From assembly GCA_903813345.2 (NCBI GenBank), contig CAIIXF020000001.1, positions 3,534,001-3,598,000 of the forward strand: a stretch of DNA of 64,000 nucleotides, in the 5' to 3' direction. Below the pieces are notes generated by a model. That model was not told where the DNA came from, did no database searches, and was given only the letters and a program-made list of their open reading frames with translations. Below, in pieces: positions 21,599-46,300 of the stretch. Every line of letters begins with the position of its first letter. Within the stretch, counting starts at the first letter, position 1. The translations under genes were made by a program, and so were the position numbers. The stretch comes from Owenia fusiformis. Its lineage: Eukaryota.

Positions 21599-22233
21599 TT
21601 AGCCTAGTGGAGACATTTCATTTCTGGAAATGTTAAATGAAGTTTATTTTGGGGGATTAAAGTTTCCAGTCGTAGCAATGTTTACATAAATGATAGAGAA
21701 TATCTTATGCTGTATCACTTTCAAAGTTGCATCTCTATTTGCATATTAACATATCTGGCTAGTTTGCAAGATAACGTTTAAATCGTTGCAATATATTGTT
21801 CATGTAATCCATCCAGAGAATAGATACATATTAATTTCATCTAGCCATTGCATACAATGGGGATAAAAATGAAGGTTATATTTATTTATTTGGTCCTGAT
21901 GCTGGCGGTTGGATTTACAACAGGTTTGAGCAACATGATATAATTTTTGAAATGAGAAACGTGACATCACTGAATGGCATGGTAAACTACTTAAGCAAAA
22001 ACAATTCTGAATGAAATAAATATTATACATCTTTAAAGTATAAAAAACAATAGATGGCAAAGCACTTCAAAAATATGATTTCAATATAATTTGTCATTTA
22101 TAAGATTTATATTGCGTCATGCTGCTAGCGGGTGTCAGTGAGGGTCTAAATGTGAAAGGGTGTCATCATGTGTCCTGACATAAAATATAATTATATTGTT
22201 TCGAACAATTATTAATCAATACAATATTTTCAG

Positions 22234-25200
22234 GAGCGGATAATGGGCATACATTTATTGGACCATTCACTGTGAAGGACGGAAACAATAGAGATCTGTT
22301 TTTTAAAATATACTACACCAAGGATAAACGTAATTCACTTTCTTGGTATAATGCAAAAGCATATTGCGAAGGAGAAAATGGTTATTTAGCAAAGCTCGAT
22401 TCTTCTCAAGCAAATGATGGAATAAAAAAGGCATTAGATGAACAAATAATAAGCTTACCTAATTTAAGTGCGAGCAAAGGTTTTTGGATTGGATTAATTC
22501 AAGATAGAAATGTAAGACAAAGTAGCAGTTATTACTGGATTGATGGTGAGCGTCTTTTGCATTTACACTGTGATATAGTAACTAAGTAATAGTTCATACA
22601 TTTTTACACGTCACTAGTAACTAAGTAATAGTTCATACATTTATAGTTCATACATTTTTACACTAGTAACTAAGTAATAGTTCATACACTTTTACACTAG
22701 TAATTAAGTAATAGTTCATACATTTTTACACTTCTTATCTTTAATATAATTTTACATGTTTTAAATTGAATAAACGTTGCATTCGCATAAATATTTCCAG
22801 AATTCAATTTTCAAAGCCTTGAATGCACAAGAAGCACGCAGTTGTCATGTAGAAGGGAGGCCACTGCGGGTGGAGAAAATACCAATGAAGAATCTTGCAG
22901 AAAGAATATGTGTTGTTGGACCGGGACAGAATGTGTATTCCCAAAAGGAACACCAAATAGTAAAAATATATACCTAGTACTACATTATTAAAAAACAAAT
23001 TAAAAAATATTATACTCCCTCTTTTGAAACCCTTCCTATTTGAAATAATATTAACGTAATATGACATTTCTATATGGATCTTTCAAAACAGTAGGTTATA
23101 CAGGGTGGGCCAAAAAACCCAATACCCAACTTTGAATCAGGATAAAAATAGCTATGTTCAATATTATACATTGATTTATATATCATTTTAAAGGTAATCC
23201 ATTTTCAAACAATTTGGTATATAACACTATGTCATGAAATCAATATTAAAGTTTTATTATACTTATTTGGGAGGCCGGGTTGCTTTTTAAGGTCTCCAGA
23301 TTTTAGGGAGAAAAAAGTAAATCTGCGGAATAATGTTAATTTTTTATTTATAGAATGTCATTTTGTTAGGTGAATACATGGTTCTATACGTGCATAGTGT
23401 GACTAAACGTTTTGTTTATGAATTTCAGTGTTGTTTACTATCATTAAGCACTCAAAAGGGGTCTGTTAAAAGACATTAAACATATATGTGACGAGGATTT
23501 TATTTTGTAACAAGACATTGCCTCGTACCATAGATCAAAGGAGACATTGGCATTCCTTTGTGAATAAGGTGTCAATTTGGTTGATCTTGATGCTTGACCA
23601 CCCACTAGCCCCGATGCTAATGTGGTTGATTGCCATACATGGAGCAATCTCAAGGAAATGGTACAATCACAAGCATCCAATAAACAGCATTGATGAGCTG
23701 AAACAGAATCCTAAAGTGCTAAAATGAATTGCAACAGAAATCTCTCAATAAGGCTATTGATAGATTGCACTACCACTTGAAGCTTATTGTTGACGCAGAG
23801 GGGGAAGGGGGGGGGGTGTATTGAGCAATTGTTAGAATTGGTTAAATAAATAAAGTGTAAAATGTTATTAAACAGCACTGCTATTTATAAACAATAAATA
23901 TAGTCACACAATGATGCAAATATCAATATCCAAGCATGTATTCACCTAACAAAAAATGATATTCTATAAATAAAAAATTAACATAATTCCTTAGATTTTG
24001 CTATTTTCCCCCTAATATCTGGAGACCTTAAATAGCAACCCGGCCTCCCAAATAAGTATAATAAAACTTTACTATTGATTTCATGACATATTGTTATATA
24101 CCAAATTGTTTGAAAATGTATAACCTTTAAAATGATATGTGAGTCAATGTACCATATTGAATGTAACTATTTTTATCCTGATTTGAAGTTGGGTATTGTT
24201 CTTTTTGGCCCACCCTGTATATTCATATATTGTGCCCAACAGTACGACAAGACAATTCATGTGAAGTAGAAGATAGATTCAGAGACGCTTGCAAAGGTAA
24301 CAATGGCAACCCTACAACATGCAGAGCAGATAAAGACTGTTGCTACCGGCGACCAAATGACAACCAGTATCCAACATGTTTCTACAAACATAGTTTACCA
24401 GGTCCACTGGGTGAGTCTTAAATTAAATCTATGATACATAGCATATACTTGTATAGTATAATATTGTAATCCCTTTGTGAAATAAGTTATCCGAAAAAAC
24501 TTTAAAAACTAAACTCCATGTTTAAACACTACAAAAGTCATCTCTTGTCAGATAAACTGTAAGAATACCTTTTTCAGTTCACGACCTCAGGAGTAAAAAC
24601 TCCAAGAGACCGATTAAAAATGAATTATAACCAAGAAAACGGTATCAAAAAGATGAATAACTATTTCAATTTTGAATGTTCCATAAAACATCATCACTGT
24701 CATTCCGACTGAAGTATCCAATTTTTAACATTTTAGGTTATACCGACTGGGGCATAGGTAAAGGAGGTACGGACTCAAATGATAGACGCTGTGGGATTCT
24801 ATGGCAAGATTTTAGTTGGCAATGGGATCACCAGAAGTGTCAAAGCAACAATGGAAACAATGTAGGATTCATCTGCCAATATCGTAAGTTGTTTCACCTT
24901 ATGTTGTAGTATACTACTATTTGTTTGGACATCGTATCATTAGAATTTAAAATGTATTATGATTTTAACACATTACATTCGAACATAGACTGGCTCACAA
25001 GTGAGTCAGTATTTTACATTGTACAATGTTATAAAGTTATAAACTATACGATATAAACTATATATATGCTACAAATTATAAACAATATATCTTTTAGGCT
25101 ATAAACTATACATTCCGATAAATTATAAACCATTTCAGCTGTCATGCCTTCCACTATCTCACCTTCTACAACAATGGAGCAAACCACAGCAGCGACAACA

Positions 25201-28200
25201 ATTACAACACAATCAACGACTACAACCTCTACAACAATTGAAACAACACAGTCACCAATGACGACAACCATAGCAACAACAATACCAATACAAATAGTGG
25301 ATACCACATTAAGTGACACAACAACAATTGACACAACAGTAGCTGAAACAACAATAGTCGACACAACAATGGTTGACACCACATTGGCTGAGACGACAAT
25401 AGTCGATACAACAATGGCTGACACCACATTTGCTGACACGACAATAGTTGACACGACCATAGATGAGTCAACAGAGGAACCATCTACAACTCCACTTGTG
25501 ATTTCATACAGCACAACAAGACATTCTGTTTCTACCAGCCAAGAGTTTGAGTTGACCACAGCCCGTGAAATAGCTGGCACCACTACTACGGACCGAAGTT
25601 CTGCTGTTCCTCCATCAACAACTGTTAGTATTGCCCCATCATCGTCAGTGCTAACATCATCATCTACAGCATCATCAACGGCTACAGTAGCATCAACAAC
25701 TTCATTACCATCATCATCAACAGCTGCAGCAGAATCATCAACATCAGCTACACAAATGTCTTCTACAATAGGTGAGTTTATTTTGGTTTCTATTGAAGAC
25801 ATGAGATCCTCCAAATTTTATGATTTCACTTTTTCAGAACACACGAGGGATACCAGTAAAGACAAGCAACTAAACAATAGCAACCAAATTCTTGTTATTC
25901 TTGTTCAAGTTCCATACTTGCAGGTCCAATTCAAATCAAAGTTGTTTAAAATTATACACAACATCACATCCATCGTGTCTTGGATAAACCAACAGTCGAT
26001 AGACAAAATTATTTGTAACATCCTGGTTGCAACACTTTGTGCACTGATTCTGTGATGGTATTGGGGTTGTCATTAGATGACACTCTAAGAATAATGTGTA
26101 TGAAAGCAATTCCAAAATAACTGGCTATATTTGGAAGATAATTGGGGAGGAAAGAAAATGTTTTATTCAAAAAGCCCCCTGAGGTACTGAATTGGTAAAG
26201 CGTGTACTATACACTTACTTATACATGCATAAGGCTGATGAAAATGACAAAATGATGGATGTAACACAAGAAAACTTTATTTCCATACATTTTATAATGT
26301 TGTATTTCCGGGCCTCAGATCAAGAGGGTCCCATCATTAAAAAAATGGACGGTTGGGTCACAATTTACATCAGTCAAAATATGTATCAATTGATTCGAAT
26401 CATGTTTTTGATAAAGAAAAATAATTATGTTAACCATGCATTTCCAATATTTTAGATTTAGCATCAATTAAAAGGGAAAGAGAGGAATCTGATAGAGCTG
26501 GTAAAATTGGTAAGTATGAAAACAATGCAAGTGAACAGAATTTAAAACTAAGAGAAATAGAAGGGACAACAGAGCGTTACTCAAATGTTACAAGAAACTT
26601 TTTTAGCAATCTACAGTCGGTGAATTTTAGAAGTGTTTTCAAAATTAACTACTGTCGTACGTATTATTTTATATGTTCTGACAGACAACTTCAGTGAAAA
26701 TGTGTATTTATAAACTACATTAAATCCTCGCAAAACAATTAAATAAGAACATCTGATTAATTCTAATTTCCCCGCCCTCAAGCCACACGCGTTCATATAT
26801 TCTGAACGGCTCGGAATGTAGTTTTGAAATAACGTTTCTTGTTATGTTACACCCTATGCACATCTTGATTCACAAGGTTTCAGTTTCTTCAACTTGTGTT
26901 ATGACCATCTTGGAATTCGAAGATGCCCTATGCAGACGGAGTTTGATGTATACTGCGTCAGAATGAATTACATACTATTTTTACAATTTTATTGATATCA
27001 GGTGTCAACTACACATATATGAGTATATTTCAAATCAAAACAGCTAAGTTTAAGAAATATCGCAAATTTAAATTCAATAATGACCGCTCATTTCTGCCGC
27101 ACCAAATATTCCCCACAGGCTCCGTCTACATAGGGTGTATTATGTCAATCATTCGTCCATCTTTTTTCCACCATAATTGATATGCAAATGAAGTTAACAG
27201 TTCGATGAAAAATATGAACTTTTAAACGACTGTGTTTGTCTAATTTGATATCTAGCCCTACTATCACACCAAACTAGTTCTCACTACGTTCTCGAAAACG
27301 GGCTTCAACTGTATACGAACGGACTGGACCTACTAAGAACCGTTTGGGATCTATTTACAAACTTCATCGAACGTACTCGAACGGGTAGGTCCTCTTGAAC
27401 TTAGACAATGCTCGAAATGTTGTCGTGGTCGTCACGTTCTATTATTTGAACGAGTGACAACGTACTAACAACGAGCTGGACGTACTACGAACGGAACCGT
27501 CGTACTTCAATCATACTAGGGACGTTTTAACAACGAGTTGAACTGTCTGAGGACGTGTTGAGAACGAGGTAGAACTAAATGCAAACGGGATTAAACTGAT
27601 TAAGAACGTATTTAACACTGCTTATGAACGAGCTAGCAAAAATATAGCTATCACACCAAACAAGTTGCCACTGCGTTCTTCAAAACTGGTTTTAAACTGT
27701 GTGCGAACGGAATGAACGTAGCTGCAACTTTCTAAGGTCTATTTACGAACTTCATGAACGTTCTCAGACGGGAAGGTGATTTTAGAATTTTGAATCGATT
27801 CAAAATTCGATGGCGACCATACCGTTCTGTTATCAGGTCATGGTGACCTTCTAGACTAAGGGACGTTGCACATCGACCTGGTGCGACTTGAACGAACTGC
27901 GAATGAGATGGACGTATTGAAGACTGTTTATGAACGAAGTAGCTAATTATTTCAGACATATTTCCCGACCACAGCCAGATTAAGCCCGTTTTACGACTTT
28001 TTCGTAGGACTGGCAAGAACGGGTAAGAACTAGTTTGGTGTGATAGCAGGGTTAGTGAGATTACGATTTTTTGTACGTTTTTGTACGTGTACGTGGACGT
28101 GTAGAGTTATGGTCCTCTGTGGATTAGTTTAAAGGTATACGGAAAAATAATTGTAATTAGGTACCTGGAAAAGTGAATTGAGAGCGGGGTGGTAATCCCC

Positions 28201-31200
28201 GGGGTCGAAATATTACACGCTCACGTACAGGTTCCCTTAAAACGTGTAACTTTGCCTCCCTACTAGCTACAAAGACATAACTTGATACCAGCTAAATAGA
28301 TTTCTTAGTTTCTGAAATGTTTTGTGTAGAAAAGCAGGCAAATGCAATAGACTTTTTATTTGAGTCTATATGTTATAATTGAGTGAGGAAGGATACTACT
28401 GTTATTAGCTTATAAGGGAGGTCGACCTTCACGTTTTAAGAGGACTTGTACGTAAACGTGTGAAATCATTGTCATCTAGGGATTAGTTCATAATACTACT
28501 CGTTCAAGTTCTCTAAAAACGTTTAGCGTGAGCTTTAATTTTAACGTCACTTACAGATCTATACGTTGATACATTTACCAAACCAGTCTGACGTAATTTA
28601 TCTACTCCCTGAATCTGAAATGTCGTAGATCCACACCGGAATAGCCTGACAACGGTAAAATCAGATATCGTTGTCACAAATGGCGGACATAACCGTCGCT
28701 TCAAGACTTTAATCACTTGGTCCTCATTTCATGGGATTTTATCGTCGCTAATCCTGTGCATGCATTAAGCTCTTGTGATGATGTATCATATGAAATCCCA
28801 ATTTCGATCAAATTGGGTCGTGAATCGCAACAATATAGCGTCTTCGATATCGTCAATGACAACGGAATCTGAATTTGAAATATTTACAAAGACAACGGCA
28901 TATGGTAATACAGTGTCTGTTGTCCCGTATCTCATTTTGATCGGTTAAATTAAAGACTTTATTTCGATGGTAGAACATTATTAAGTGAATAATGAGTATA
29001 AAGACACTTTGGTTGATTGTTGTTCTAAAGTCTAGATGCTCTATTAAACATACAGTTCATGAAAATCTAATTGAAAATACGGTTATGTCCGCCATTTGTG
29101 ACAACGTTATCTGACTTTACCGTTGTCAGACTATTCCGGTGTGAGATCTACGACGTCGAACTGGGCCAGACGGGTTTGGTTAGGCGTACATTATCATTGA
29201 CGTGACGTGTTGACAAATCGAAATCCAGTAAAACTATGTTATTTGAATTTGTATACTTATTTATTGAATTTATTTGGATGCTATTGTATACTTTTCGGTT
29301 TGGAATTATACAGACATGATTATAGTACTATATAATAACACAACTAATAGCTAATACAAGAAAACACTGTGATTGTAAGGAAATTTAACTGTTTACTTAA
29401 TTTTTTTTAAAATCCAAGTTGTGAACTCAAATGCAAAATTATGTAATGTTTGTTGTAATGTTGTAGATGCTACACGCCATTCATTGTTGTTTGTTTGTAA
29501 GGCTGTCTTATCTGATACCATTCTTAATTTCTGTTACCAACTTTCTGAAAATATAAAATAAATAGTGATATAAATATGCTGAATATTATAATCAGTATGT
29601 GATTGATGTGTTAAGTTGTGGATGTTACAAAACGGAAAAATGACGTTGCATCCTTCAAACGCAGGGCTCCAGATATAACTGACGCATCAACAAGAGGGAA
29701 GTTGTTGATGACGGGAGCCGTGCGTCCGGAGGTTGTGATACTGTTGCTTTATGAAGAGGCTTACATTCAACCTGTTGTTTATACTTTTCTTCCATCTGCG
29801 ACATGAAATAGTGAAGAGTCCCGAACATCTTGTAAACAACCTCGGCTGCATCATCACTGATGTGGAGACCCTTCATATATGCCATGGCGTCACACATCTT
29901 TCCCATGTGCTCGGTGTTCCAAGGGGCGTCCAATCTGACTTGACGTTTTGCTCTCATGTTTTCCACCTCCTCTTTGGCTTCGTCGATGATGTCTTCTTGC
30001 TTGGGAATATTGTGTTCTCCATCAATGGCACCTGCCAGCTCGGCTCTCAATTGGCAGACAACGTGCATACGCTTCAGTTGTTCCCATACATAATCACGCA
30101 TGGCGGAGTCATCGTATGTTTCACCTTCTTCCGCTTGTTTTGTCTCAGCAAGGAGGCGTTTAAGAGTTGCCACCATTCCACTCTTGCTATCCCTTTTGAC
30201 TGGGCCACTCAAAGTTGCGGGGACAACCAAGAGCATCAGGGCCAGGGAAACAGTCACAATATTCATCTTGAAATCTGGAAAAAATGAACAATTATCAGTA
30301 CATCCTTGTTGCAATTGATGGATTGAGATCTACTGCAACTTTTGCTTTTTGTTTTTGCATAGAATGATGGAAAATTCAAATCTCAGACTGAAAACTTGAA
30401 AAAGTTGAGGTTACCCTTGATTATCCAATAAAATATAAAGAACTTATCTCGTTTTTTAAATTGATTTACTTGGAGTATTCGCAGCGAGAAACAATGCGAA
30501 GAGGTCAGAACAATTTATAATTCCAACTCCAAAACTCAACCCAAAACAGTTGAAACTTAGGTAAGTTAGATACAATTGAAAATCACAATTAAACTTGAAT
30601 ATTGCAACTTTCACTTTGAAAAATAAAATAAGGTTGAGTTTAAAACTTTTCATGTGCTTTTTAAGTTTGAAACTATTCAAGAGACTATTAAGGATACTAT
30701 AAAAAATACAAATTAGACCAAAATACAATGCTTTTTCTTGAAATGTTTATTATTTTGTATTTCTGAAGTGCGATACATTAATCATAAAATAATTGGTGCT
30801 CGTCAAAATTTTTTGAATAATTCTTACCTTGTTTGGTCAGACTCTCTCACTCCTATGGGAACTAAAAAGTGGTACCTTGTTGGTGGTAACCCAAGATTTT
30901 AAAGTCCTAGGCTATTATGTTATTTTATAAGATTTATAAGTTTGTTTTGGACCCCATTGTGAGAATTCTTATATAATGTACAGGGTGCTTCGCTATTTAC
31001 AGTCTACTTTAAAAGAACATATTTCAAGGTTTTTCATCAAAATATTTATTTGATCTATTTATGCATCGTTTTTTTTGTTTCCACTAAGTACATTATGTGA
31101 TATTTTGATATTAACCCTCTTTTTAGTATAGTCACGCGGTACTAACTTCGACCGTTAATTTGAATTTTTGACCTACCAGATGTATGAAAATCAAAGGATT

Positions 31201-34200
31201 GCGAGTCTCATACTGCACCGTTTTTTCAAACTTGTTCCATTCAAAGCATAACAAAAATGACTTTTTGTATCTTTTTATTTGAAATTTCCACAGAATGTGT
31301 AAAATAATGGCAGCCATTGGTGTGACGAATTTCATTTACTTTCCTTCAATTGGAAGAACAAATTGGTTACTAGTATGGTCACGCTTCTTCAGACCTTGAT
31401 CGATCTGACGCATCATTAGTAAAATGTTGTTTGTAATTTACTGTAAACACATATTTTGGCAATATCTGTTAGATTGGCAAAAATGGGAGCAAGGATATGT
31501 AATATTTCTGTTACATGGCAAAAATGACAAGCCATAGATAGGTTGACTTCAAATTCATACAAAGGACGCAACGTCGCGATGCCTCAAAGATTTTGACCAA
31601 TATCTGTTAACGTTGCAATGAATTATGGGATTTGACATTTTTTATTTGTTACACAATAACTTGAGAACTCATTGCCTGATTAACTTTAAATTCATACAAT
31701 GATCACCAATCTTCAAACTTAGGATAATATTAGTTACCGTTGGATATGGAACTTGCACAGATACGTTTTCACTTTATGTATTTATTTAATTGTCATGGTT
31801 ACAATTATAAATACTTGTACTTTAATACATCGGAAACAATTACCCCAGGCTCCAATCCATGTGCAATCAAAAATGATCGTCAAAAATGTTTTGTTATGAA
31901 TTGATCAGATTGTGGAAACTGTTATGTTGTCTAAGTCCTAAACTTTTCTGCATGAGATGTCAAATTGGCCATTTCTAATTCTTGCCTTTCCCGAGGCCTT
32001 TCCCATCTCTAAGATGCTGACACTGGGAGATGGCTGAAACAAACTCTGTTGTCAGGTTATGTTGAAATAATTGATGCTTGAGATCGTGAGCTTAGTTATT
32101 TTGTCGTGATCAGTTTAAACGGTGTCACTGTTCCGTCTCACTCTGTACTCTGAACCTTGTCAAAGGGTGAGAACGTTTAATACCTAGAACACGTCGATTT
32201 AAATCCCCTTTCCAATATCATTTTGGCACTGCCAAGAAGACAGATTGGTGTTCATTTCAAATTTAAATTTATCGATTTAGTTAAGCTCTTTAAAGGGTTG
32301 GTATTTGGATTAACTACACGGAAAACAAGTAATTCTTATTCTTAAATTCCAACTAGTTAGCCACTATTATTTTCTCATTGGAATTTTTATTCATGTTTGA
32401 AATCGCTTTTGTTACACAGCCGATATTAATGATGTTGTAGCTCTGCAATAACAGTGTCTGGATATTTAAAGGACATTTAAACTTGAACTGCTCCATCAGT
32501 GGTCCTCGTGAGAAATCATGGCCTTCTGTTAGCTTATTTCTAGAAGTCATATTTCTAGTTAACGACAGAAAGATTACGCTTTGCAATAGTTCGACTTCGC
32601 TTTTTAAAGAGAGCTTCGTCTATACTCTTGGAGCGGGGTACATAAAGATGGGATGAGTATCAGAATCGAATGTATTATCGTTATGTACTTGAATATCGTC
32701 CCATATCTTTTCTAGGATGTTAGTGATACTCCCATAGGCTTCGGGAATAGTAGTAATACTATGTATAATAAAGTTTCTTTCTCTTTCTCCGTCCATCACA
32801 TCATCTTTTATGGGAATCTGGTGCTATCCATAACACTTTTCAACCATGGGCTTTCAACTAACTGAAAGCCCATGCTTTAACCCAGCTCTTAATTGGCAGA
32901 CGTACATACCATGGGCGTCTTCTTGAACTCACTGTCCTGTCTTGTTTTAGAATGAGGACGTCTCATTTGTTTCATATGATTCTTATTGTCTTTTTGACTG
33001 AACTAAGCTTGGGTTCGACAGCAAACAACACAATCAAGGTCACTGGATAAACTGCAATATTTGCAATGTTGGGCAGTGCGCAATTGAATTGCAAACGCAA
33101 AATTGCAAGACTGGGACGGAAATAAATTTCCATACTACAGTATCGATGAAATCTAATTTATGAATTTATACTTTCCAAATTTTTAAAGATATTCAAAAGT
33201 TTTAACATTTTATAAGCACACTACTATACCTAACACCTAGAAATGCATAAGATACTTTGTTTGTCTAGTTGAATTGTTTAATATATTTTTGAAAGTGCCT
33301 TACTAGCATCTAATTTTCAACCGATAAACCATTCATAAGGAACAGACAAATAAAAACAAATACATAATCATTACTAATGAGCCAAATGGGTTGCTCATGA
33401 ACACCAAATGCAAGGTATAGTAGTGTGTAAGTGGTAACGAGCATCTTAGCGTCTTTGGATGATATATACCAAATATAATATACTTTAAAACCTGGCAAAC
33501 AAATGGTAAACAATAAGTATGCCCGGGTATATATGGTACAAGTATATATACATTTTTGAAATTAATTAACAAAATGGACAATTATCGAATGAATTATTCT
33601 CGATTCTGTAACACGATCGAATCTGGACCAATTTTGAGGCTTGATATAATATTCAGACATATCTAGACAAGGTGTGTCCGATTCCACGCAATCAGAAAAC
33701 GCTATTTCAAGTAACTGCATGCTATTATTTCACTTTATTATATACCTCAAATGTATTCTAGATGCTCATTGGCTTATTCATGGTCACATGACATGGAAAG
33801 TCCTAAATCCCTGCTTTCAGGGAAGATGAATTGTACTAATCACCAGTTAGGTCATGTGACCAGTCAATAGTACATTTTATCTTCCCCCAAATCTGAGATT
33901 ATAGGAGTTGAAAGGTAAAATGCCTTTAAATGCCAATAAGAACCTGTGAACATTTGATATTGAAATGAAAAGACTTCTCATTTTGTTTTTGTTTACAGAG
34001 TACTTATCAGGTATATAACAAAACAAATAGTGACTGCCACATTTTCGGGAAATAGTGTAAAAATTTTCCTCTCGGGAATATCTATTTGTACAATATTACC
34101 TGCAGAAACAATGCACTGAACGATATCTAATTTCCCGGGGAAAATTGCCGCTCATTACTTGCATTCTTGACCGGCAATATTGACCGCCACCATGACGTCA

Positions 34201-37135
34201 CATATTGCTTAGGTCGATATAATAAAATTAATGTCTTCTAAACTAGCACTAAAGTCCCTAGAACTGGCCTGGCAAGGTGGTAATAATATATGATACCGAC
34301 TGACACAAACAGAAGTGACAAATTGACCCTGATTGCAAAATTTTTCGTTCCACATTGCACTGAGTCCAGGGCTTAAATCCTAAATACAATCTTACTGAAA
34401 TATTCAAAATACAATCGCTTGCAATAGGAAAATTCCATATCCACAAATCGTGGATAAGTATTGTTTGCTTCCAGTTGAATATATACAATTGAAAATTTAA
34501 TGAGCATTGGAAAAAGGTTTAGCCTCCCCGTTGCTAAATAGAACTTCAAAATAATCCGGATTTTATTGCACAGTTAATCCACCTTTGGCTAATAGAGAAA
34601 TTTCCAATTGCCCCTGCAAGATTGTAACTCTTTTAAAAAGATTAGTGAATGTATAATTGTCAAAATGTGAATACACTGCTTATGAGATATGTCTTATGTG
34701 ATATAAGGTCAATAAGGGGGTTGCTATATTTATTTATTTATTTATTTAGACTTACACTTTTAAAACAGTGGCTCACAAAAGGAGCATCGACATTCATTAA
34801 AAAATTATGTACATACAAAAACCTATAGTTTACTAAAATAATGGTAATCATGGTTTTCCAGAATATGGTATGTACACCTCTGTTAAAAACGTTTTAAAAC
34901 AATTGTCAAATTGTTTTCCTATTTCATTCCCCACATTATAAAAACATATATAGCTGAATAAATAGCTGTCAGCACTTGTTTCTATTTGTTTTGGTTGGGC
35001 CAGACTGCCATAGGCTTCAATGGTAAAAACTTGCAATAGTTACTTAATTTCATGATTTATCAAAAAGTGTTCTAAAACTCTGTCTAAAACTCGAATGGTA
35101 TACCCTGTTAATGTACATATTGTGATTAATCATGAGCATTTTAGTTGTTGAATGAATAAACCAAGGTTTTTAAAAAGATCATTGGAGACTTGGCCAACAC
35201 TTTTTGAGAAAAGTTGAAAAGGTTTTGGAAAAAGATTTGAATAACATAACTCTATGAGTTCAGTGAAAATTTATCTAAAAGTCAGTAATAACTTTGATTT
35301 ACTTCACTGTTAGAACTTCTAGAGAAGTTAAGAAGAAAAATACTGTTCAATGAAATACTAAAAAATGTTTTGTATAATTCTTCAGGAATGTGGATTGGAA
35401 TTGGCGTTGGACTTCTTGTGCTGATAGTACTTGTAATACTTCTCATTGCCTTCCTCACAAGGAAAAAGTAAGATTTCATTTATCTAATTCATTTCAATGT
35501 GCATGCTGCATGAATAAATTAAGATAATGGTGGCTGATTTAATTTGGATCTTTAACTTTCATCACACTGTCATTGATCTTCACTTACATCACACTATAAT
35601 TCATGCATGTTTCAATTTTCCCATACTTTATTGAGCACCCTTGATAATGCTAAACTATACACAAACTGCAGCCTATTGCAATAGCTTACGATAAGATGGG
35701 ACTTTCAGCTGTGCTCATCTTTCTACGAGTCTCATCTTATCAGATAATTATTTTAGAATAATATCTAAGGTCGCTTTGCTTTATAGATGGCGTATCATTC
35801 AGCCTCGTAAATGGGCAATAAAAACACCACCAATGAGACAATCAATTCATCCACAGCAATTCCCTAGTGAAAATCTATGTCTTGTTAATTGTAATGAGAA
35901 ATATCAGAATGGACTCCTTCCCCCTATCCCAGGTACTTTTATTTTCATGTCAAATTCCCCGAAATTATAAATATATTTCTTCTCCAGTGTTATTGAAGGT
36001 CTGATAAATATTTACAAATGGGAAAAATGATTTACATTTCAAATCATATGATTGATCAGAGAATAGTTGGTTATTTGTGACAAAATTGAGGGAAATAATA
36101 GCTTTGGTTGCCTTAACTTTACTGGGCTGATGATATTTAGCATTAACATTGAACACTGGAACTCACCTAGTTATGCTGACGATACGTCAGCGTAACAAGA
36201 TGGAAGAACTTCCGGCTTCGTTTTCGGTAAGATATTTTTATTTCTCGATTCTACACCACTTATAAGTCAAGTTGTGGACAATAATTTGGCTCAAAGCTAA
36301 GGAAGATAGCCTAGTTTGAGAATATGCAGGCGGTTCTATATTGCCAATGTGACAATATTCATGAAGATCGTCAATGTAACAAAAGCGAGGGACTAAATAT
36401 TTGAATTGCGTCTCCGTTAATATACTAAACAGAACCGCCTGCATATGTGGTGTGGAATCGAGAAATAAAAATATCTTACCGAAAACGAAGCCGGAAGTTC
36501 TTCCATCTTGTTACGCTGACATATCGTCAGTGTAACTAGGTGAGTAGCAGTGATTGAAGGATATCTAATCCATTCTTATTTCTCATTTTAGACAACCAGT
36601 TCGAAAACCAGAATTTGCAGAAAGAGAGGATAACACTTACATCGATGACGTAGATCCTGTCATGCTAACTAACCCGTTATATGAACAGACTCAGTCGCCA
36701 CGCAACTCAAAGATCAACATTGAGATCTCAATTGGGGAGAGCGGTCAGGTGACCACAAATGGAATGAGCATGCCAACGGGGAAATCAATATCATCGATGC
36801 GGCTCAGTGGAGGCACAACCAACCCAGGGTATGAGATGATGAGTATAAGAAAAGAGAATGACAGACAAAGTCCAAACCAAGACTACGAGATGATGGGTAT
36901 GAATGGCAGTGACAAACAAAGTACATTAAAATCTGACTATAGCGTTCCCAGAACTGGGAGTGAGCTGTCTGGAACAGAGTCTGAGTATGACACTCCTAAA
37001 GTACAGCCAGACTATGACACCCCGAGGTATCTGGGAAGACTGCTTCCCGCTCCTCCAGCATATTCCAAAGACAAGCCAAAGGACCCATGGGATATTCAAG
37101 TCGTTGAGGGATGGAATGCTCAATCTAAAATTTAA
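22234..37135 (+). CDS. Type-I transmembrane C-type-lectin / trefoil / mucin receptor. Exons: 22234-22545 (CTLD N-half), 22801-22959 (trefoil-like 1), 24243-24410 (trefoil 2), 24737-24883 (CTLD C-half), 25139-25771 (Thr/Ser mucin stalk), 26456-26509, 35386-35467 (TM), optional 35787-35932, last exon 36592 or 36600 to 37135. Probable signal-peptide exon near 22105-22137.
   Basis: CTLD motifs SWYNAKAYC...LAKL, FWIGL, YWID and YTDW...C...W...C...FICQY. Six-Cys CC-containing modules, a Thr-rich stalk, TM MWIGIGVGLLVLIVLVILLIAFL followed by RKK, and a Tyr-motif tail. Extracellular introns are all phase 1. Start codon not resolved. Confidence 0.8.
22575..22732. repeat. Intronic tandem repeat, ~34-38-bp unit TAGTAACTAAGTAATAGTTCATACATTTTTACAC, about 4 copies
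   Basis: Directly visible. Confidence 0.85.
23101..24217 (+). mobile_element. Internally deleted Tc1/mariner-superfamily element (DD37D/maT-type) with ~290-bp TIRs and TA TSD
   Basis: TA|CAGGGTGGGCCAAAAA...TTTTTGGCCCACCCTG|TA. The internal relic at ~23500-23700 reads QDIASYH...*PPTSPDANVVDCHTW...SIDELK, with 37 codons between the last two catalytic Asp and in-frame stops. Confidence 0.9.
27255..28052. mobile_element. ~800-bp non-autonomous TIR element with an internal diverged direct duplication
   Basis: TA|GCCCTACTATCACACCAAACTAGTTCT...AGAACTAGTTTGGTGTGATAGCAGGGT|TA. The segment starting at 27261 recurs, diverged, from 27648. Rich in GAACG. Confidence 0.8.
28578..29179. mobile_element. ~600-bp MITE with ~100-bp imperfect TIRs, flanked by TTA
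   Basis: GTCGTAGATCCACACCGGAATAGCCTGACAACGGTAAAATCAGATATCGTTGTCACAAATGGCGGACATAACCGT (~28622-28696) is the near-perfect reverse complement of ~29079-29155. Termini CCAAACCAGTCTG/CAGACGGGTTTGG; TTA at 28575-28577 and 29180-29182. Confidence 0.8.
29655..30266 (-). CDS. Unrecognised secreted preproprotein (203 aa), nested antisense in the receptor intron 26510-35385
   Basis: Signal peptide MNIVTVSLALMLLVVPATLS, four KR sites including a furin-type RAKR|Q, and GC-richer coding-like composition. Splice acceptor at 30275-30277 just before the ATG, candidate 5'UTR-exon donor at 30826-30827, minus-strand AATAAA at 29260-29265. Confidence 0.8.
   Translation of the reverse strand: MNIVTVSLALMLLVVPATLSGPVKRDSKSGMVATLKRLLAETKQAEEGETYDDSAMRDYVWEQLKRMHVVCQLRAELAGAIDGEHNIPKQEDIIDEAKEEVENMRAKRQVRLDAPWNTEHMGKMCDAMAYMKGLHISDDAAEVVYKMFGTLHYFMSQMEEKYKQQVECKPLHKATVSQPPDARLPSSTTSLLLMRQLYLEPCV
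36154..36552. mobile_element. 399-bp MITE with ~100-bp TIRs (CACTG...CAGTG) and a perfect 6-bp TSD ATTGAA
   Basis: ACTCACCTAGTTA...AAGATGGAAGAACTTCCGGCTTCGTTTTCGGTAAGATATTTTTATTTCTCGATT is mirrored at ~36456-36546. ATTGAA at 36148-36153 and 36553-36558. Confidence 0.9.
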
Positions 37136-40061
37136 TCCTTGTTAGGCATATTGAGCTTCATACATTCAAAACTTCTAACTTAGTAATTTGCATTGTTGAC
37201 TCAATAGTTGAAACCATATTCAGGTATAACTCTGCTGTGTAGTGTGTATTGTAATCACTGAGAAGAACACGGCATTTGATACCCTTTGCATTCGTTTGAC
37301 TTCACTTCTTAAAAGAGAGCTTCGTCTTCACTCTTTCAAACTAAAATAAACCTGTGAACTCACCGCACCAATCAGTGTTCGTCGGCCAAATTTGACCGAC
37401 GTTCTTTATATGGTCATTCCTTCTGACGTCATCGTTGAGCCCAGAATTGACCAATGACATGCGCATATTTAATTAGAACGCATTTGGCGCATGTTTCTTC
37501 AAGCTCGCTGATTGGCATGGAAGGTCAGCGCGTACGTCAACAGTGATTTACCCAAACTGTCACCGGTACCCATCGTTGGGGCGGGGCTACTAAACTGTAA
37601 TATGGTCTCTACTAGGCAGAGTGTAGTTTAACTAGACTCTGCACGCAGGGTAGGCATTTGAGCAGATGAGTTAGAAATATATGAATTTGAATGTTGTGTC
37701 TCTATATTTACATTGGAAATTTTAGTTCATTATCTATTGTACTGTGTTAGGTTATACAATTCATGTACCAAAATATCTACATGTGGTGTGATTCCAGCAT
37801 TATACGTACCTAGGTTGCTGTTTATATTCCAGAAATATTACGAATTAAAAACCTTTTGTACATGTATGTACAAAAATATAAATGTACATGCCATTGTTAT
37901 CTGTTAGATGGCCAATTCACTGACTATTGTCTATGCCGTTAGATAAAAGAGGAACTTCTGAGAACTTGGATAGTACTGATAATGTCAAATCTGTAACTGC
38001 ATTGGTATATTTAAGATAGAAATTGCAAATGCAATCGATCAGTTTGAAAAAGTAAGGAAGTCACTTTAGCAATTAGTTCTGATGCATGGAAAGGCCAGTA
38101 TAAAAGTAAATATCAGAGGCATAGCCAGGATGAAAAATAAGGTGAGGCAAATGTAAACATGTGAGGCAAATAAGGCATATGTAAATATATGTTGATATCC
38201 TTGTAGGAGTAAATGAACTTTTAAAGGTTTTTCAGCATTGTGTCAATGGGGATTTAGCCCAACCTTTTTATTTAGACAACTAGAAAATCATTAGAATTTG
38301 AATAAAGGTAAATAATGCTGCAAATCAATGTTGTTTTGATAGAAAATTACACCCAGAATTCAAATATGCCATCAAATAGAAATAAATGTTAGTCTTTAAT
38401 GGTTAAAAATGCAGATCTCCTAAAATCTCATTAAAAAACGAGACTTTAACAAGATTTCAAAGCTGTATGGAAAAAGGACCATTGCCTCTTTGCCCCATTT
38501 CGGCTGCATTCATGAATAATTATTCTATTATGCATTAAAATCAATGAACAAATTACTTATATTTATATCACAAAAATGTATTTGTTTAAATTTTAGAACT
38601 GGGTATTTCCAGTGCCATATTATGTACAAAGACAGAGCGAGCTTTATGAGCAAACTACGCCAAATTGCAGTAAACAATATCATACATTTAACTGTACATA
38701 TTTATAATACAACTTTACATTCTGAATAAAATGGAAAATTCTCCATAATAAAGTATATTGTTCATTTACCATTTCAGGTCTATTATGCAGAGCTGATGAA
38801 TCTCATGCACACTTTTCTTAATAGAAAAACTATAACAACTTGAAATTATTTACATTATTATCAACAAGAAATTGCCAACAATAAAAGATCCACATATACA
38901 GAGAAAAGTGCTTAGAATTATATAGATTTAAATTTCTTAAAAGCATTCAATTATATGGTATCCTTTGCTTTGTTAAATCTGCCAACGTTAGAATCCTGAG
39001 AACCAAAATGCAACAATACAATGCAGTGTTTCACATTTGTGAATAAGACTTCCAAAAAGTCAATATTTTTAAGCACGTTTCACTGAATAATCTTCATAGG
39101 GACATTTATGCTAAGTCCAAAATGCATACAATAATATCTATACTAAACTACCTTACATCTTTATCTTATAGTAAATAAATTAAATCTTGCATTTTATGCT
39201 ATATAAAAGGTGATGTCACTTGCACATTTGGCAATTATATACAATGTACACGGACACACCGACACACCTTTAATTCAATTATATTTTGCCAGCAAAACTA
39301 GCAGTTGTATCTTGAATACCTAGATTGAGACATTTATTGTACATTCAAATATTTGTTTTCAAAAATTACCTATCAGATAAAAACTCAGTAATATCTACAT
39401 GGACAAGATGCATACATTAACTGCTTATTTCATAAAAATGTTTACTTTAGCTTAATCCTAACTTTAACAGCTGAGGAACAGTACATATCCTTATATAAAT
39501 GATTTACATACAAGAGAAAATGTCAGTACAATATTCTATATATATTTTATATATTCATGATCATGAGTTACTATAACTTTTATATCTGATTTCATTTTTA
39601 AAGTACACATTCTCTAAAAAGCACCACATTCCGAAAAGAAAGTCCTACTTAAATGTCCAAGAAATGTACGACATTCACATATAATGTATTGTATATAATA
39701 ATGTCTCAACGAAAGTGTATGATTATGTACAATGCTATAAATGAAGTGAATATAAGTGCAAAACATACAAATACACACTAATATGCACAATATATGCCAT
39801 TACATGGACACACCCTGTTTAGCATATCACTTAGCTAAACACTACATATAAATAAGAACATTATTTTGTGTCTAAAATTGCACTAGAAAACAGCTGTGGC
39901 ATGCACTAATGCAAGCAGAATCGCACATTTTTATGATTTTCCACAATGAATGATGAAAAAGTATTCAACAAAAAAATCAAAAAATATTTTAAATGAATGA
40001 AGAGATGTCAAAATATTTTGTGTCATTTTCATCAGGAGAGTCACAAAGATGTTGATTTTGC

Positions 40062-40348: not shown

Positions 40349-43300
40349 CTATACTGAATTCTTGGGGTCGGGAATGTAGAGATGTGGGTGCGTGTAATTA
40401 ACATTGGGGTAAATACTGCCATTCTTATTGTTCATAATGTTATTGCTGGTGGGACTATGAAGCTTATCCAAATTATTTGTATTGTTATAGTTGTTTGGGT
40501 ATGGGTCATTACGTTTGTAGTTATTTGAGACAGATGAAGCAGAGCTGTTATGAGCCGAGGATTTGTGGCTGGAGACAGAGGGAGGGGGTGAGGGCTGTTT
40601 ATAGATGGGGCGTTGGTACATCAGTTGAGGCTGTTGCTGCTGCTGCTGTTGTTGCATCATCTGCTGCTGCATCATCTGATGTTGTTGTAACAGTTGATAT
40701 GGGTTGACTGGGGGTTGGGTGGGTGGTGGGATTGTGGTTGGCATGGGTCGGTGGCCTAAGGACTGATTGGTTATCTGGCTGGTCTGGGTGTTGTTACTGG
40801 GTCCAGTAGAGTGATGGCTACTAGGTGCACTACTAGAGTGGCCAGATTGGCTGTGAGCAACATGGTTATGTACAGCTAAGCTCTCACCACGCCAATGACG
40901 TAACCTTGTGTTAATCTCTCTAAAGTGGGGCCTCCTACCAGCTACCTCATGCCAGCATTCTATCATGAGCGTATACATGCGAGATGGGCAGTCATCGGGA
41001 CAAGGCAAGACTTGACGCGCCCGGATCATTTCAATCACTTCCTGGTTAGAGAAACCGTAATACGGCTGGAGTCCATAGCTGAATATCTCCCATAATACAA
41101 CCCCATAGCTCCATATATCACTCTCCACTGAGAATTTGCCATAGAGGATAGCCTCTGGGGGCATCCAGCGTACTGGCAACAAGCTCTTGCTCTGTACTCG
41201 ATAATAGTCCGATGAGTATATATCTCTGGACAAGCCAAAGTCTGAGATTTTGACAGTCACATTTTCTCCTACTAATATATTCCTACACGCAAGGTCTCTG
41301 TGCACAAAATGGTGGGTGGCGAGATATTCCATTCCTGCTGCCACCTGATTGGCTATATAAAACATGTCTGATTGGTCGAGGACGTGAGGTGTGGTATCGT
41401 CATCACTGATTGAGACATCTGAATGTGGGGAGTGAGTTTGGAGGTACTCATGTAGGTCCCCATGTGCCATGAACTCAAATAACATACAGTGAGGTTCCTC
41501 TCTGAGACACACACCTATGAGGCATACAATATTAGGGTGCTTTAAATCCTCCATCAAATCAATCTCCTTTTTGAAATCAGTCTGTGTTTTAGACGCTGCA
41601 TTATCTTTCACTGTTTTGATTGCTACTTTAGTGATCGCATGCTCTGATGGGTAGCCAATGAGCTCCCCTTTGTACACCTTGCCAAATGCTCCCTCTCCAA
41701 GTTCCTGGAGGAATCTTATACAGCTCATGGGGTATTCGGTTGATCTGAGGCTCTGCTTGGAGGTCAAAGGACTCAGTTCCATGTTGCCGTTGGAGCGCTT
41801 TGCGGTCTTATCCTTGAGTGCTTGTTTGTTTCTCTTGCACATGCATATTATGAAGAGAAGCAGTGCTAAGGCCAGAGGTACCGCGATACAAGGGACGAGG
41901 ATCATGATGATTTCACTAACGCCTTCGCTGCCCTTTACTTCAGCTGCAAAACACAACAGATGCCAATATCAACACATGCATTAACAAAAAAGAAGAAGAA
42001 TGCAATTCTAACTGAGCATGTTAAATGGCAAGTGCGTGTCTATGTCTTCATTACACTGGATGTGGATATGAACCAGTAAAGAGACACAATGTTGTTCACT
42101 ACAATAGAAAACTTAAAGGGTCTAAACTCTTACCAAACCAAATCATGAAGTTTCATCAAATTCTAAGCTAGCAGTGTACAATGATGTTTCATACTCAATA
42201 TCATTCTAGTCTAGACCCTTTAAATACATCAGTTTCAAGCTTCTAGGTGTAAAGTTGATGTTATTTTACAACAACACATTTCAGAAATACATCTCCAAAA
42301 CAGCAAATTCAAAAATCATCTACAAAACAAAACTGAAGAATGAGTAAAAAGGCATGCTAAAAACTAGTGCTAATGCAAATGTCTTAAAATAATGAACATG
42401 ATGATGAGATAAAAATCTAATTTTACATTCCCTCTTCAATCAATGTAACAGACAATATTTTCCAAAAATGTAATTCTCCTTAGTTGATATGAAAGAAGTA
42501 ATGCTAATTTGCATTTGCAATGACACAATTGTTTATGTCTATAAAGGGTCTAATTGGGGTGTCTATCAGGTGTCGCAATCAGTGGAATGCATATCTGTTT
42601 ACATATTTGATGCCAAATACTATTCCAGTAACTATGGGAATGAACTGGATTGTTCCTTGGTTGCTATGGTAACTAGCACTGTTGCCATACCGACTCAACT
42701 TCCTATAATAAACTGAAAAAGAAAATTTGGGATGAATGGAGGTACAGAATAGAGGAACAAAGGCAAGAACTTGTATGACATGTATGTACCTAAAGTCTGA
42801 AGTGAAGTAACCCTTTATCAAAATAATAATTAAAGACTTATGAAATCATTTTATCAGTCAAGGTTGCTACTGAGGGTCCATTGTTTGATACAAAGAATCA
42901 ACATTGAGAAAAGATAAATGCAGTCTCTGGATTATAAGTTCAATTAATAAACAATCCACGAATTCTGAATCTGTAGCAAAGGTTATTTATTTATACGATA
43001 AGACAGAAATTATGATTTTATGAAACTTCCACCACATATTTCAAATGGTAACTTTTAAAAATATATTAAAATTAAAAATATCAAATCAGCAAATAATTTG
43101 GGAAAAGTTGTATTTAATTTAATCAAGACATCATGCTTTACTGTACTCAGGAAAGTACAAAATAGAGGTAAACTTATTTTAATAAGATGCAATGCCATGC
43201 CTGATGTAAGAGTCACTTTATGAGAGAGTATCAAAGAATTATCTCAAGGTTTTGTATCCAACTTATTCAAATAAAGAAAGTAAATAGAGAGGCATCAAGC

Positions 43301-46300
43301 TCCTAGCAATAAACTTGTATTCTTGACAATATAAACTCTCTTGAAATTAATCAATCAGTCTTATTTATTAATTATTATCATAAGATAGTGTTCATTTTTG
43401 TTTACTTAATTCATCTTGTGAATGCATGGTTCCGAACATCATTCATGTCTCGAGCCCTTCTTTCAGAGGATGCATTAAATTCTTAAATTCACTGAATATT
43501 TACAAGACTCTAGACAGCCTTTAGACTTCCTTATTATAAAGTAAAATTACTTAAGATTACTCTGTAAATAGCATGGGGTCCCATCCGATAATACTATTTT
43601 CAAATCAACTTTGCATTAACTTGTGACTGAACATAATGAAGAAGCTAAATTTAAGTCTACTCCTTTATACTTTATTTGCTTGATATACTTACAGCATTTA
43701 GGTATAGAGCATAGCTCTCTAGGAACATTGGGGTTTCTAGTAAAGCACCAGGGGGCATCTTCCCTGTTTCCAGGGTTACGGCAATAATTGTGGTCACCTG
43801 GGAAACAGAAAAATACATTATTCTGTAACATTTAAAGAAGATATGGATCATACAAATCAAGTTTATATTCGAGGCACACCCATGATATAACATCCAAACC
43901 TCAGACATACTGTCCAATGAAAACCCTTACGCCCATAAATAATATAGCAAATCATAGGAGAGAATTTGTATCATGTGTAATCTTAATAAAATATTAACTA
44001 ATAATACCAGCTTAATAACTTATTCATTAACTTATGATTGATTTCTAATCAGCTGGCACTTCCTTTAACTTTTCTGAAAATATGAGTTACTAAAATGGAT
44101 ATAAAAATGATCATAGTTGTTTTAATATTCTAAATCTAAAAAAATGCTGATTCTCAATGCGCATTAAGATAATTAACATTTTGATATTGAAAAGAGTTAA
44201 ATAGTTTATGTAAGAAAATAATCTGCTATAGCTGGTGACAATGTACAATGAAATACAATGTATGCATAAAATGTGTATAATGAAATACAAAACATTGAAT
44301 TGATATGATGATCATACCTAGTTCAGGAAAACTTGAAGTTTGGAAAAAACTCATTGGATTGTGAGGTGAGTTTTCGTTCCACTTTTGGCACTCATATCCA
44401 GACAGAGTGTGACTCACTGTGCCTCTGTAAGTGTTCCCTGTCCCATTGTAGCATGTATGGCCTGAAATATATCATAAAAATTTACATGACAGAAAATTGA
44501 TGAAAAATATCAAAATGTTCAAAAATTTATCAAGTCAAATACACCTGTAATAGGAAAGGGGAGGGAAGTAGTTAAATGTCACTAAAGGTGTCAGCACTCT
44601 CTTGCAGTACTAAGAAGTGATTGAAACCTGTAGTGCCATCTTTTAATGTGATTCAACTCTATCAGATACCGTATATTCCTGTAAGGTGAGACAGAGAATA
44701 ATATTATTAAACAAGTATAATCTATCTAAACTAAACTTAACTTAAGAAGAAGAAGTTACTTACGTATATCTAGATTACGGCTGGGCCCAAGAGCACCAAC
44801 GCTGAGACAATTGGCAGCCTCAGGGGTCCCTGGTAGGGGGAGGATATCACACTTGGGTAGGATAATCTTATCAGCTAAAACACAAAAATGCACGCATAAA
44901 TAAAATATAGAGCAGATGAGCAGATTTTTACAATTGTTTCCACGTGAACAAATTGACTTAAGGATGTGTCACAACTGAAAAGTGAATTATTACAACGTAA
45001 ATTCCCATCCTTTTGTGCTAATTACCATGTGTATATGACCTTGTTTTTATGTTTTGAGCAAATATGTTGAGAATTTATTGTTCAATTTGATTAAGACCTT
45101 TTTCCTAGGTGACAGATTTGTGAGCTGTTATCATAGGTGAAACTGGCAGATTTGAGAATATATTGTTTCTCGAGGCAATCTAAAATGTTCAGGTAAACTT
45201 AGCATCAAAGCTTAGTTTAATGTCCATAAAGTCAAGATGTTCGAATGTATAGACCTTTGCTTGATACAACTTGACTTTTACAGCAGAAAGGTGCTAGAAA
45301 GAAGTGAAATATTGACCCATTAACCATCTTTATATCCCCACAGTTTTTCACTCACATGGAAAAAGCCCACACATTTCTTACATTCTGTTTTCCAAGAGCT
45401 GAAGAAGGAACATATTTGAAGCTCATTTATCAAAAATAGTTTTGATTGTGTAACACTTGGATTGATATGAGAGGAATACATAGACATGTGTTACATAAAT
45501 CATTTCTCCAGACAGATTACTTGTACAAGACATACTCTACAGATAGCGCCTAATTAACTGTATGTTCAACCAAACCAACCCCTAACTGTGCAACCAAAGC
45601 TAAAACACATACCTATTAAAGGATTGGCACTTGCAATGAGAAACTCATTTTTGCATATCGTATCCTCTAAGGCTACACATTCCTCTCTGCAGATTTTCTT
45701 CGGTTTGGGTTTTGGTCCGCTGTTGTCACATAGCGGAAATGCATTGAAACAGAGACTGGGTATTGCGTATTTTGCACAATTGGCAGATAGATCACTAGAC
45801 TGGGCTATCACAGAATATGCAGCTGAAAGAACAACATAGACAGTTTTAGATTTCTATAATAGCAAATGGCCAGTTGCATTTGCTAAGGAACACCAAATAA
45901 TCAAAGGTTATTATTAAGTTTTTATTTTTCCCATAATATTTAACCAGGTATCGCAATCGGGCGTCATGACATACGTGGTTACAGAATTCAACAAATGAGA
46001 ATTTCCAAGCTATTCACATCATTATAACTTGTTTGGAAAGTAAACCTCACAATCTGTTGTTATGCTATTTCATTGAAATGTGACAACAAATGTAAAAAAA
46101 ATTATTCATTTCTATTATTTTCTCTACAAAATCCCAAATTATTTGATGAATTTCTCGTACTTGCTAATCTCTCATCTATCTGCTTCTGTTGAACCTTAGA
46201 TGTGACATAGATGCTTTTGTTGGCCAGGAATTTGTGACACGCAGCACCCTTGTATGGTTGACAGAACCCTTCCATCTGTCTAGCTTCCTCTCCATACATT

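Follow-up and report, generated by a model that had tools for sequence, protein, structure and literature searches.

Cleavage at the furin/convertase consensus R-X-K/R-R, trimming by carboxypeptidases and cyclisation of an N-terminal Gln are familiar maturation steps of convertase-processed secretory pro-proteins and prohormones. This functional class is among the closest described counterparts of the gene presented here, which lies on the minus strand of a 64,000-nucleotide (nt) stretch of the Owenia fusiformis genome (contig CAIIXF020000001.1, positions 3,534,001 to 3,598,000 of the forward strand; hereafter the window, with coordinates counted from its first letter) and is likely nested in a lectin/mucin receptor-like gene of the opposite strand. 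Like the members of the class, its predicted product has a signal peptide (recognised by inspection), an acidic pro-region ending in R-X-K-R, which a low-confidence structural model places in an accessible position, additional lysine-arginine (KR) pairs, and a Gln at what would be the new N-terminus. It differs from them in having no sequence relative, no conserved bioactive motif and no amidation signals, and its cleavage is predicted from the motif. We conclude that the nested gene is an independent protein-coding gene, whose main messenger RNA (mRNA) in one sequencing run, X1, encodes an acidic protein of 167 amino acids (aa) with a signal-peptide-like start. It has three exons and spans at least positions 29260-31161 of the minus strand; it is transcribed, with two GT..AG introns spliced out, and its level is strongly regulated from sample to sample.

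The transcript evidence covers positions 25000-37300 and consists of the X1 contigs and the raw RNA reads of runs X14, X15 and X16; 13 of the 18 sequencing runs listed match part of the stretch, none being listed as RNA, and the shares of the runs other than X1 were not used as evidence. The structure of the gene is as follows:

30828..31161, minus strand: exon 1, a non-coding 5' exon, from an X1 contig with a joint to 30274.
30275..30827, minus strand: intron 1, in the 5' untranslated region (5'UTR), GTAAGA...TTCCAG, from the joint 30274->30828 (CT..AC on the plus strand, i.e. GT..AG on the minus strand).
29765..30274, minus strand: exon 2, made of 8 nt of 5'UTR, a coding sequence (CDS) of 167 codons (29766-30266) and the first base of the stop codon, from contigs and sequence.
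29545..29764, minus strand: intron 2, GTAAGC...TTTCAG, from the joint 29544->29765.
29260..29544, minus strand: exon 3, the 3'UTR, from X1 contig 29377-29507 (depth 1201.2) and more contigs to about 29286.
29655..29765, minus strand: optional C-terminal extension (codons 168-203 and stop, with C168 and C202), present only when intron 2 is retained.

The initial annotation of this DNA had predicted the 5'UTR intron, and its joint was found in one X1 contig (depth 162.7) and one X14 read. The depth profile of X1 agrees with it, with 2.06 over the intron (30343-30753) versus 4673.9 over 29932-30342 and values of 3933-4674 in the exon bins; within exon 2, the X1 contig 29872-30149 has a depth of 4187.7 and is identical to the window. 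The joint of intron 2, which that annotation had missed, is carried by two X1 contigs (depth 1649.6), is unambiguous in position and is also GT..AG on the minus strand. The upstream end of exon 1 is not fixed: the X1 contig ends at 31161, where a repeat starts (~31165), and the X14 reads at 30891-31069 all have their first mate on the plus strand, so that the minus-RNA orientation reaches at least 31069. Exon 1 is long and carries five short upstream open reading frames (uORFs), and in-frame stops precede the ATG at 30266. The contig that bears its junction enters exon 2 by 29 letters only, like a graph branch. Two further elements of the early picture were retained in part. The TATA-like promoter motifs do exist (TATAAA at 30938-30933 and 30929-30924), but they lie within transcribed exon 1, where the X1 contig and the X14 reads cover them; the gene's own AATAAA is present, and twice (29274-29269 and 29265-29260, in exon 3 just past the contig ends), but outside the 29655-30900 span then attributed to the gene.

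Intron 2 determines where the protein ends. Its donor is located after the first base of codon 168, and splicing joins the T at 29765 to the AA at 29544-29543, creating a stop codon right after E167. Codons 168-203, i.e. the last 36, are thereby dropped, and the main X1 product is 167 aa long with two Cys, C71 and C125. The four-Cys protein first described (C71, C125, C168 and C202) exists only as the rare intron-retaining form of 203 aa, seen in one X1 contig (29658-29794, depth 16.4) and amounting to about 1% of the spliced form; the Cys count is even in both isoforms (two or four). The 36-codon tail has a guanine-plus-cytosine (GC) content of 0.495, close to the 0.477 of the CDS and unlike the 0.273 of the remaining intron 2 sequence. 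Taken alone, its open frame does not reach significance, the probability being 0.08 with an intron-like composition and 0.24 with its own. The tail may serve as a seldom-used alternative C-terminus, or it may derive from a coding end that was turned, perhaps recently, into intron sequence.

The strand of the RNA was deduced from the raw reads. Over the nested CDS, reads with the first mate on the plus strand reached depths of 0.79 and 1.43 in X14 and of 0.43 and 0.96 in X16, with 0 in the opposite orientation; in X15, the depth was 0 on the nested CDS and 1.13 on the cytoplasmic tail exon of the host gene. Reads of that host exon, which its GT..AG joints fix on the plus strand, have mostly the reverse orientation (in X14, 2.91 with the first mate on the minus strand versus 0.53). 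Since the CDS reads all have the first mate on the plus strand and those of the plus-strand host tail mostly have it on the minus strand, the nested RNA is minus-strand. The minus-strand transcript on which the initial annotation had staked its reading is thus present, and spliced.

Such an RNA could in principle be a non-coding antisense or intronic transcript, its long open reading frame (ORF) being fortuitous, or recently born and untranslated. The five upstream ATGs of exon 1, the lack of homologues and the absence of the ORF from the deposited protein set (see below) are what this explanation has in its favour. The ORF itself argues against it. It occupies 29655-30266 on the minus strand (203 codons from ATG to stop, 224 from stop to stop), and base composition predicts only ~0.008 stop-free frames of that length in the window, all six frames included. 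There are 39 stop-to-stop frames of at least 90 aa in the window, eight of which reach 200 aa; besides the nested ORF, the other seven overlie recognisable exons of neighbouring genes, in sense or antisense orientation. The GC content is coding-like: the 0.477 of the CDS compares with 0.27-0.32 in its introns and UTRs, and it varies with codon position (0.58, 0.32 and 0.53). The signal peptide, the even number of Cys and the layout of the motifs all fit a secreted protein. Finally, the X1 contig pieces that were listed show 0 differences from the window over 415 nt of coding sequence (two pieces) versus 14 substitutions over 612 nt of non-coding exon (three pieces, which also have eight gaps), an indicative contrast with a Fisher p of 0.0013. 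We consider the non-coding explanation very unlikely. Another open frame, of 182 codons, runs antisense to the nested CDS (29739-30287, plus strand); no plus-RNA reads were found for it in the raw runs, and it is accordingly taken as a by-product of the GC-richer coding region.

The features of the protein on which its maturation would depend are listed below:

30207..30266, minus strand: signal-peptide-like N-terminus, residues 1-20, likely cut after T18-L-S20, by inspection.
29943..29954, minus strand: R105-A-K-R108, a match to the R-X-K/R-R convertase motif, with Q109 next, from the sequence.
29766..29942, minus strand: putative C chain Q109-E167 (59 aa, isoelectric point (pI) 5.48, 7 Met, 3 His, C125).

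At the N-terminus, residues 3-15 are hydrophobic and are followed by P16, with T18 at -3 and S20 at -1 before G21. The other KR sites are K24R25 (after GPV), K36R37 (after ATL) and K65R66 (after EQL), and the acidic spacer corresponds to residues 91-103. The 203-aa form has 14 Met and 6 His. Every one of the features initially claimed, from the signal-peptide-like start and the KR sites to the acidic spacer, the RAKR followed by Gln and the Met/His richness, is present, and with this start and this layout the product does look, from its sequence, like a secreted preproprotein. The 167-aa product is acidic (pI 5.3), and more so its N chain (residues ~26-106, pI 4.65); the C chain has 6 basic versus 9 acidic residues. 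Two AlphaFold runs without alignment gave helices only (27-46, 53-82, 90-106, 118-131 and 138-166). In these low-confidence models RAKR stands at the end of helix 90-106, ahead of a loop, and KR36-37 and KR65-66 are inside helices. The last helix of the C chain is amphipathic (0.005 of shuffles reach its moment), and H120, M121, M124, M128, M131 and H135 are found on one helix face (wheel angles of 200-300 degrees), beside C125.

The reading that we prefer, with a probability of about one half, is that the nested gene encodes a secreted pro-protein, acidic and entirely helical, which is processed at RAKR to give two chains joined by a single disulfide. The protein would enter the secretory pathway and lose residues 1-20 (cut near S20/G21), and would adopt a helical fold with a C71-C125 disulfide. 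A furin- or PC-type convertase would then cut after R105-A-K-R108, behind the acidic spacer, to yield the acidic N chain (~26-106) and the Met/His-rich C chain of 59 aa (Q109-E167), possibly with a pyroglutamate start. Because each chain has exactly one Cys, C71-C125 would be the interchain link and would keep the two chains together; the two-chain, disulfide-linked arrangement suggested at the outset is in this way modified to a single predicted link, with one Cys on either side of RAKR. KR36-37 and KR65-66 would probably be spared because of their predicted mid-helix position and of the Leu and Met that follow them. The rare intron-retaining mRNA would add the 36-residue tail with its two more Cys. 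The product would act independently of the host gene.

Two other fates of the same protein have to be weighed. In the first, RAKR is left uncut and the protein is a secreted helical single chain, a small bundle with one disulfide that would serve as a cytokine-like ligand, a carrier, or a component of a matrix, tube or mucus. The five helices predicted across residues 27-166, the two Cys (the number found in some one-disulfide helical cytokines), the acidity of the protein and its abundance in X1 all suit this view, and dibasic sites in folded helical proteins are often left uncut. Against it, RAKR is a full convertase motif, located at a predicted helix end or loop and after an acidic spacer, an arrangement typical of the border of a pro-region; the models, with predicted local distance difference test (pLDDT) values below 50, allow no fold to be assigned. 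We regard the uncut single chain as possible, with the odds clearly on the side of cleavage. In the second, the protein is a precursor of the classical neuropeptide or prohormone type, from which cleavage at each of the four KR sites releases several short peptides in a few neurosecretory cells. The signal peptide, the four dibasic sites and the acidic spacer are as expected for such a precursor. Amidated annelid-type neuropeptide precursors, however, have Gly before their dibasic sites and repeated peptide copies: here none of the four KR sites follows a Gly (the preceding residues are V, L, L and A), so that there is no amidation signal, and there are neither peptide copies nor internal repeats. 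Furthermore, two of the KR sites are followed by Leu or Met within predicted helices, cleavage would give long, acidic products with Cys, the depth is ~4000 in one run, and no relative was found among Capitella, the molluscs and the other annotated animals in the protein collection. A classical precursor is for these reasons decidedly unlikely. As the gene is abundant in one run and near absent in others, we think an abundant secreted product specific to a stage or a gland more likely than a classical neuropeptide.

Several points weigh against the two-chain pro-protein that we prefer, or against the evidence for the gene itself. Cleavage, secretion and disulfide are predicted from motifs and established rules; the signal peptide was judged by inspection and its N-region has no basic residue. 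The mean pLDDT of the two AlphaFold runs was 39.0 and 43.1, so that the helix positions are indicative only. No relative was found that would show conservation of the ORF, of the Cys or of RAKR. The polymorphism contrast uses five relevant pieces of the eight listed among 1348 and is likewise indicative only. That X1 is an RNA run is a guess, for which the spliced contigs and the contrast in depth between the exons and intron 1 argue, and the raw-read support in X14 and X16 amounts to a handful of reads. Lastly, the depth of the exon 1 junction contig in X1 (162.7) is well below that of the CDS (4187.7); the main 5' partner in X1 may be a different 5' exon, or come from a haplotype with less than 95% likeness.

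The composition of the C chain invites a more adventurous version of the two-chain pro-protein. The Met/His face might, as a speculation based on the sequence, offer a soft-metal site or a pliable surface for binding. The nested gene would then encode a lineage-specific, two-chain, disulfide-linked factor, whose Met4/His2 face binds a soft metal (Cu(I)-type) or a receptor, and whose C-terminus is switched by the stop-creating splice, the rare tail adding a second Cys pair; it would represent a newly evolved family of hormone-, cytokine- or metallo-peptides in the lineage that is sister to the rest of the annelids. We rate this full scenario as unlikely.

As had been surmised, no family could be assigned to the protein: searches of Pfam, of the Protein Data Bank (PDB) sequences and with phmmer gave none. 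In Pfam, neither the two full forms (203 and 167 aa) nor the N chain, C chain or tail matched any family at E<=10 or E<=0.1. A word-indexed search of a 5.8-billion protein collection, limited to near lengths, gave no match, and the ESM Atlas gave no usable one. With phmmer, run against 1.84 billion representative proteins, a single match was obtained, and no self-match: a 569-aa bacterial repeat protein (E 7.5e-4, 27% identity), which was rejected as a chance match of helical repeats. Chance was also the verdict for two sets of PDB chains, ubiquitins (E 0.04-0.5), the query being predicted all-helical, and designed armadillo repeats (E 0.006), with no stretch passing. There were 5 pattern matches in viral and 168 in metagenome contigs, of which none was confirmed, and four peptide fragments of the protein gave no match in the literature; a paper on the Owenia nervous system, in its accessible part, covers only four conserved amidated peptides. 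Rfam gave 0 matches over the whole window, and neither 29250-31600 nor the nested protein has a second copy within the window. Transposon cargo was rejected as an origin of the gene on the grounds of this lack of a second copy and of the low, one-orientation raw-read coverage of the CDS, unlike the two-strand coverage of the flanking repeats; in the databases and the window that were searched, there is thus no clear match to a known family or to transposon cargo.

The positive control for these searches was the exon at 40352-41968 of a neighbouring ROR gene, which matched an NCBI 'unnamed protein product, partial [Owenia fusiformis]' with 100% identity, as well as 4301 further receptor-kinase relatives from annelids, molluscs, arthropods and vertebrates. 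Since the collection contains Owenia fusiformis and many animal proteomes and yet no match to the nested gene, the latter looks unannotated and lineage-restricted. It appears to be absent from the deposited protein set, and restriction to the oweniid lineage is likely as judged from the sequences in the collection, which may be without fragmentary transcriptome contigs of other annelids.

The presumed host gene lies on the plus strand. Its recognisable parts are:

22191..22586, plus strand: C-type lectin exon (Pfam Lectin_C, E 5.7e-09, 37.1 bits for a cut-off of 22.6).
24182..24418, plus strand: trefoil (P-type)-like ORF, a possible host exon (19.1 bits, just below the Pfam cut-off of 21).
25129..25771, plus strand: Thr/Ser-rich mucin-like exon, by inspection; putative donor G|GTGAGT after 25771, phase 1, without read support.
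35386..35467, plus strand: transmembrane (TM) exon, entered in phase 1; joints 35021->35385 (cut +1) and 35467->36592, both GT..AG.
36592..37132, plus strand: cytoplasmic tail exon with repeated Tyr motifs, from the joint 35467->36592 and a contig.

The trefoil-like ORF stands between the lectin exon and an ORF at 24676-24906 (plus strand), which has no Pfam match and which, from its motif, we take to resemble the C-terminus of a lectin domain. In the 25000-37300 stretch, no read joins the mucin-like exon to the TM exon. A single host gene is likely nonetheless, because the two junctions, each in phase 1, would complete one and the same Gly codon; nesting of the secreted-protein gene inside the host gene is accordingly likely. 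The position first given for the nested gene, between the ectodomain and TM exons of its host, holds by coordinates, without a read that links those host exons. No full-length host protein came out of a search of longer proteins with the cytoplasmic tail as query. Within 34937-35022 (plus strand), a short exon (~34985 to 35021/35022) comes after a TATAAAAA-like motif; this exon is spliced to the TM exon (X1 contig, depth 22.3) and ends in an ATG out of frame with it. Together, the motif and the lack of a usable in-frame start make the short exon look like an alternative first exon with an internal promoter, giving a transcript that would encode TM and tail without the lectin ectodomain. A 'goes back' joint, 37300->32606, was rejected as an artefact: the repeat copy at 32606-32629 resembles the sequence just past 37300.

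It had also been raised, as a speculation, that the nested protein might be co-regulated with the surrounding lectin/mucin receptor gene, or even be its ligand. Position, on the opposite strand between host ectodomain and TM exons, is all that speaks for such a link. The expression data speak against it: the ratio of nested to host depth was ~190:1 in X1 (4187.7 versus 22.3) and less than 1:1 in X14 (0.79-1.43 versus 2.91), a shift of more than 100-fold between runs, with the reservation that depths in runs found through a gene are biased towards that gene; in X15, the host tail was covered without a single read on the nested CDS. Co-regulation is therefore not supported, and a functional tie to the host appears scarcely credible.

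The nested gene is flanked by stretches of another kind. Those at 27055-28287, 28699-29109, 30754-31575 and 33220-34452 show two-strand coverage in all three raw RNA runs, a very high summed depth in X1 and many loose ends (e.g. at 27256, 28046, 33217 and 33427); they are probably expressed interspersed repeats within the host intron. Elsewhere in the window, a large exon on the minus strand (8846-10897, continued to ~16200) is FG-rich and has five RanBP2-type zinc fingers (Pfam E 7.5e-33); the gene is probably that of a Nup153-like nucleoporin. The ROR-family receptor tyrosine kinase gene, also on the minus strand, comprises the kinase exon (40352-41968) and a Fz-domain exon (45569-45853), and the deposited Owenia ROR protein, which is marked partial, covers 80% of the 539-aa exon frame.

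If our interpretation is correct, the deposited proteins of a key reference annelid lack an abundantly expressed secreted protein that has no detectable relatives, and small lineage-restricted secreted genes located in introns slip past annotation. The locus would offer a compact case for the origin of a new convertase-processed protein, and for a coding 3' end turning into an intron. The gene touches no long-standing open question; its main value is to correct the annotation and to provide a candidate for expression and peptidomic work.

Among known systems, precursors of arenicin-type antimicrobial peptides with a BRICHOS domain can be set aside, as no Pfam match was obtained at E<=10 and the C chain has a pI of 5.48; an anionic protein argues, more generally, against the usual cationic antimicrobial peptide. 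The furin-activated cystine-knot ligands (neurotrophin, TGF-beta, Spaetzle) have at least six Cys after the furin site, when the nested protein, predicted all-alpha, has one after RAKR in its main form and three in the rare one. With insulin/relaxin it shares the idea of two chains made from one precursor by dibasic cleavage and held by disulfide, but it has neither the six-Cys framework (two Cys in the main form, four in the rare one), nor a Pfam match, nor a connecting peptide excised between two sites. Granule proteins of the granin, proSAAS and 7B2 type are also acidic, helical and abundant, with several dibasic sites and few Cys; the nested protein is much smaller and matches no Pfam family. 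The class-I helical cytokines with one disulfide, e.g. leptin-like ones, are similarly secreted and all-alpha, with ~150 residues and two Cys; the nested protein differs by its five predicted helices instead of four, in models (pLDDT 39-43) that give no fold evidence for the four-helix up-up-down-down bundle of these cytokines, and by its internal furin-type site. The nested gene thus adds an orphan member, new but of modest interest, to a familiar kind of gene.

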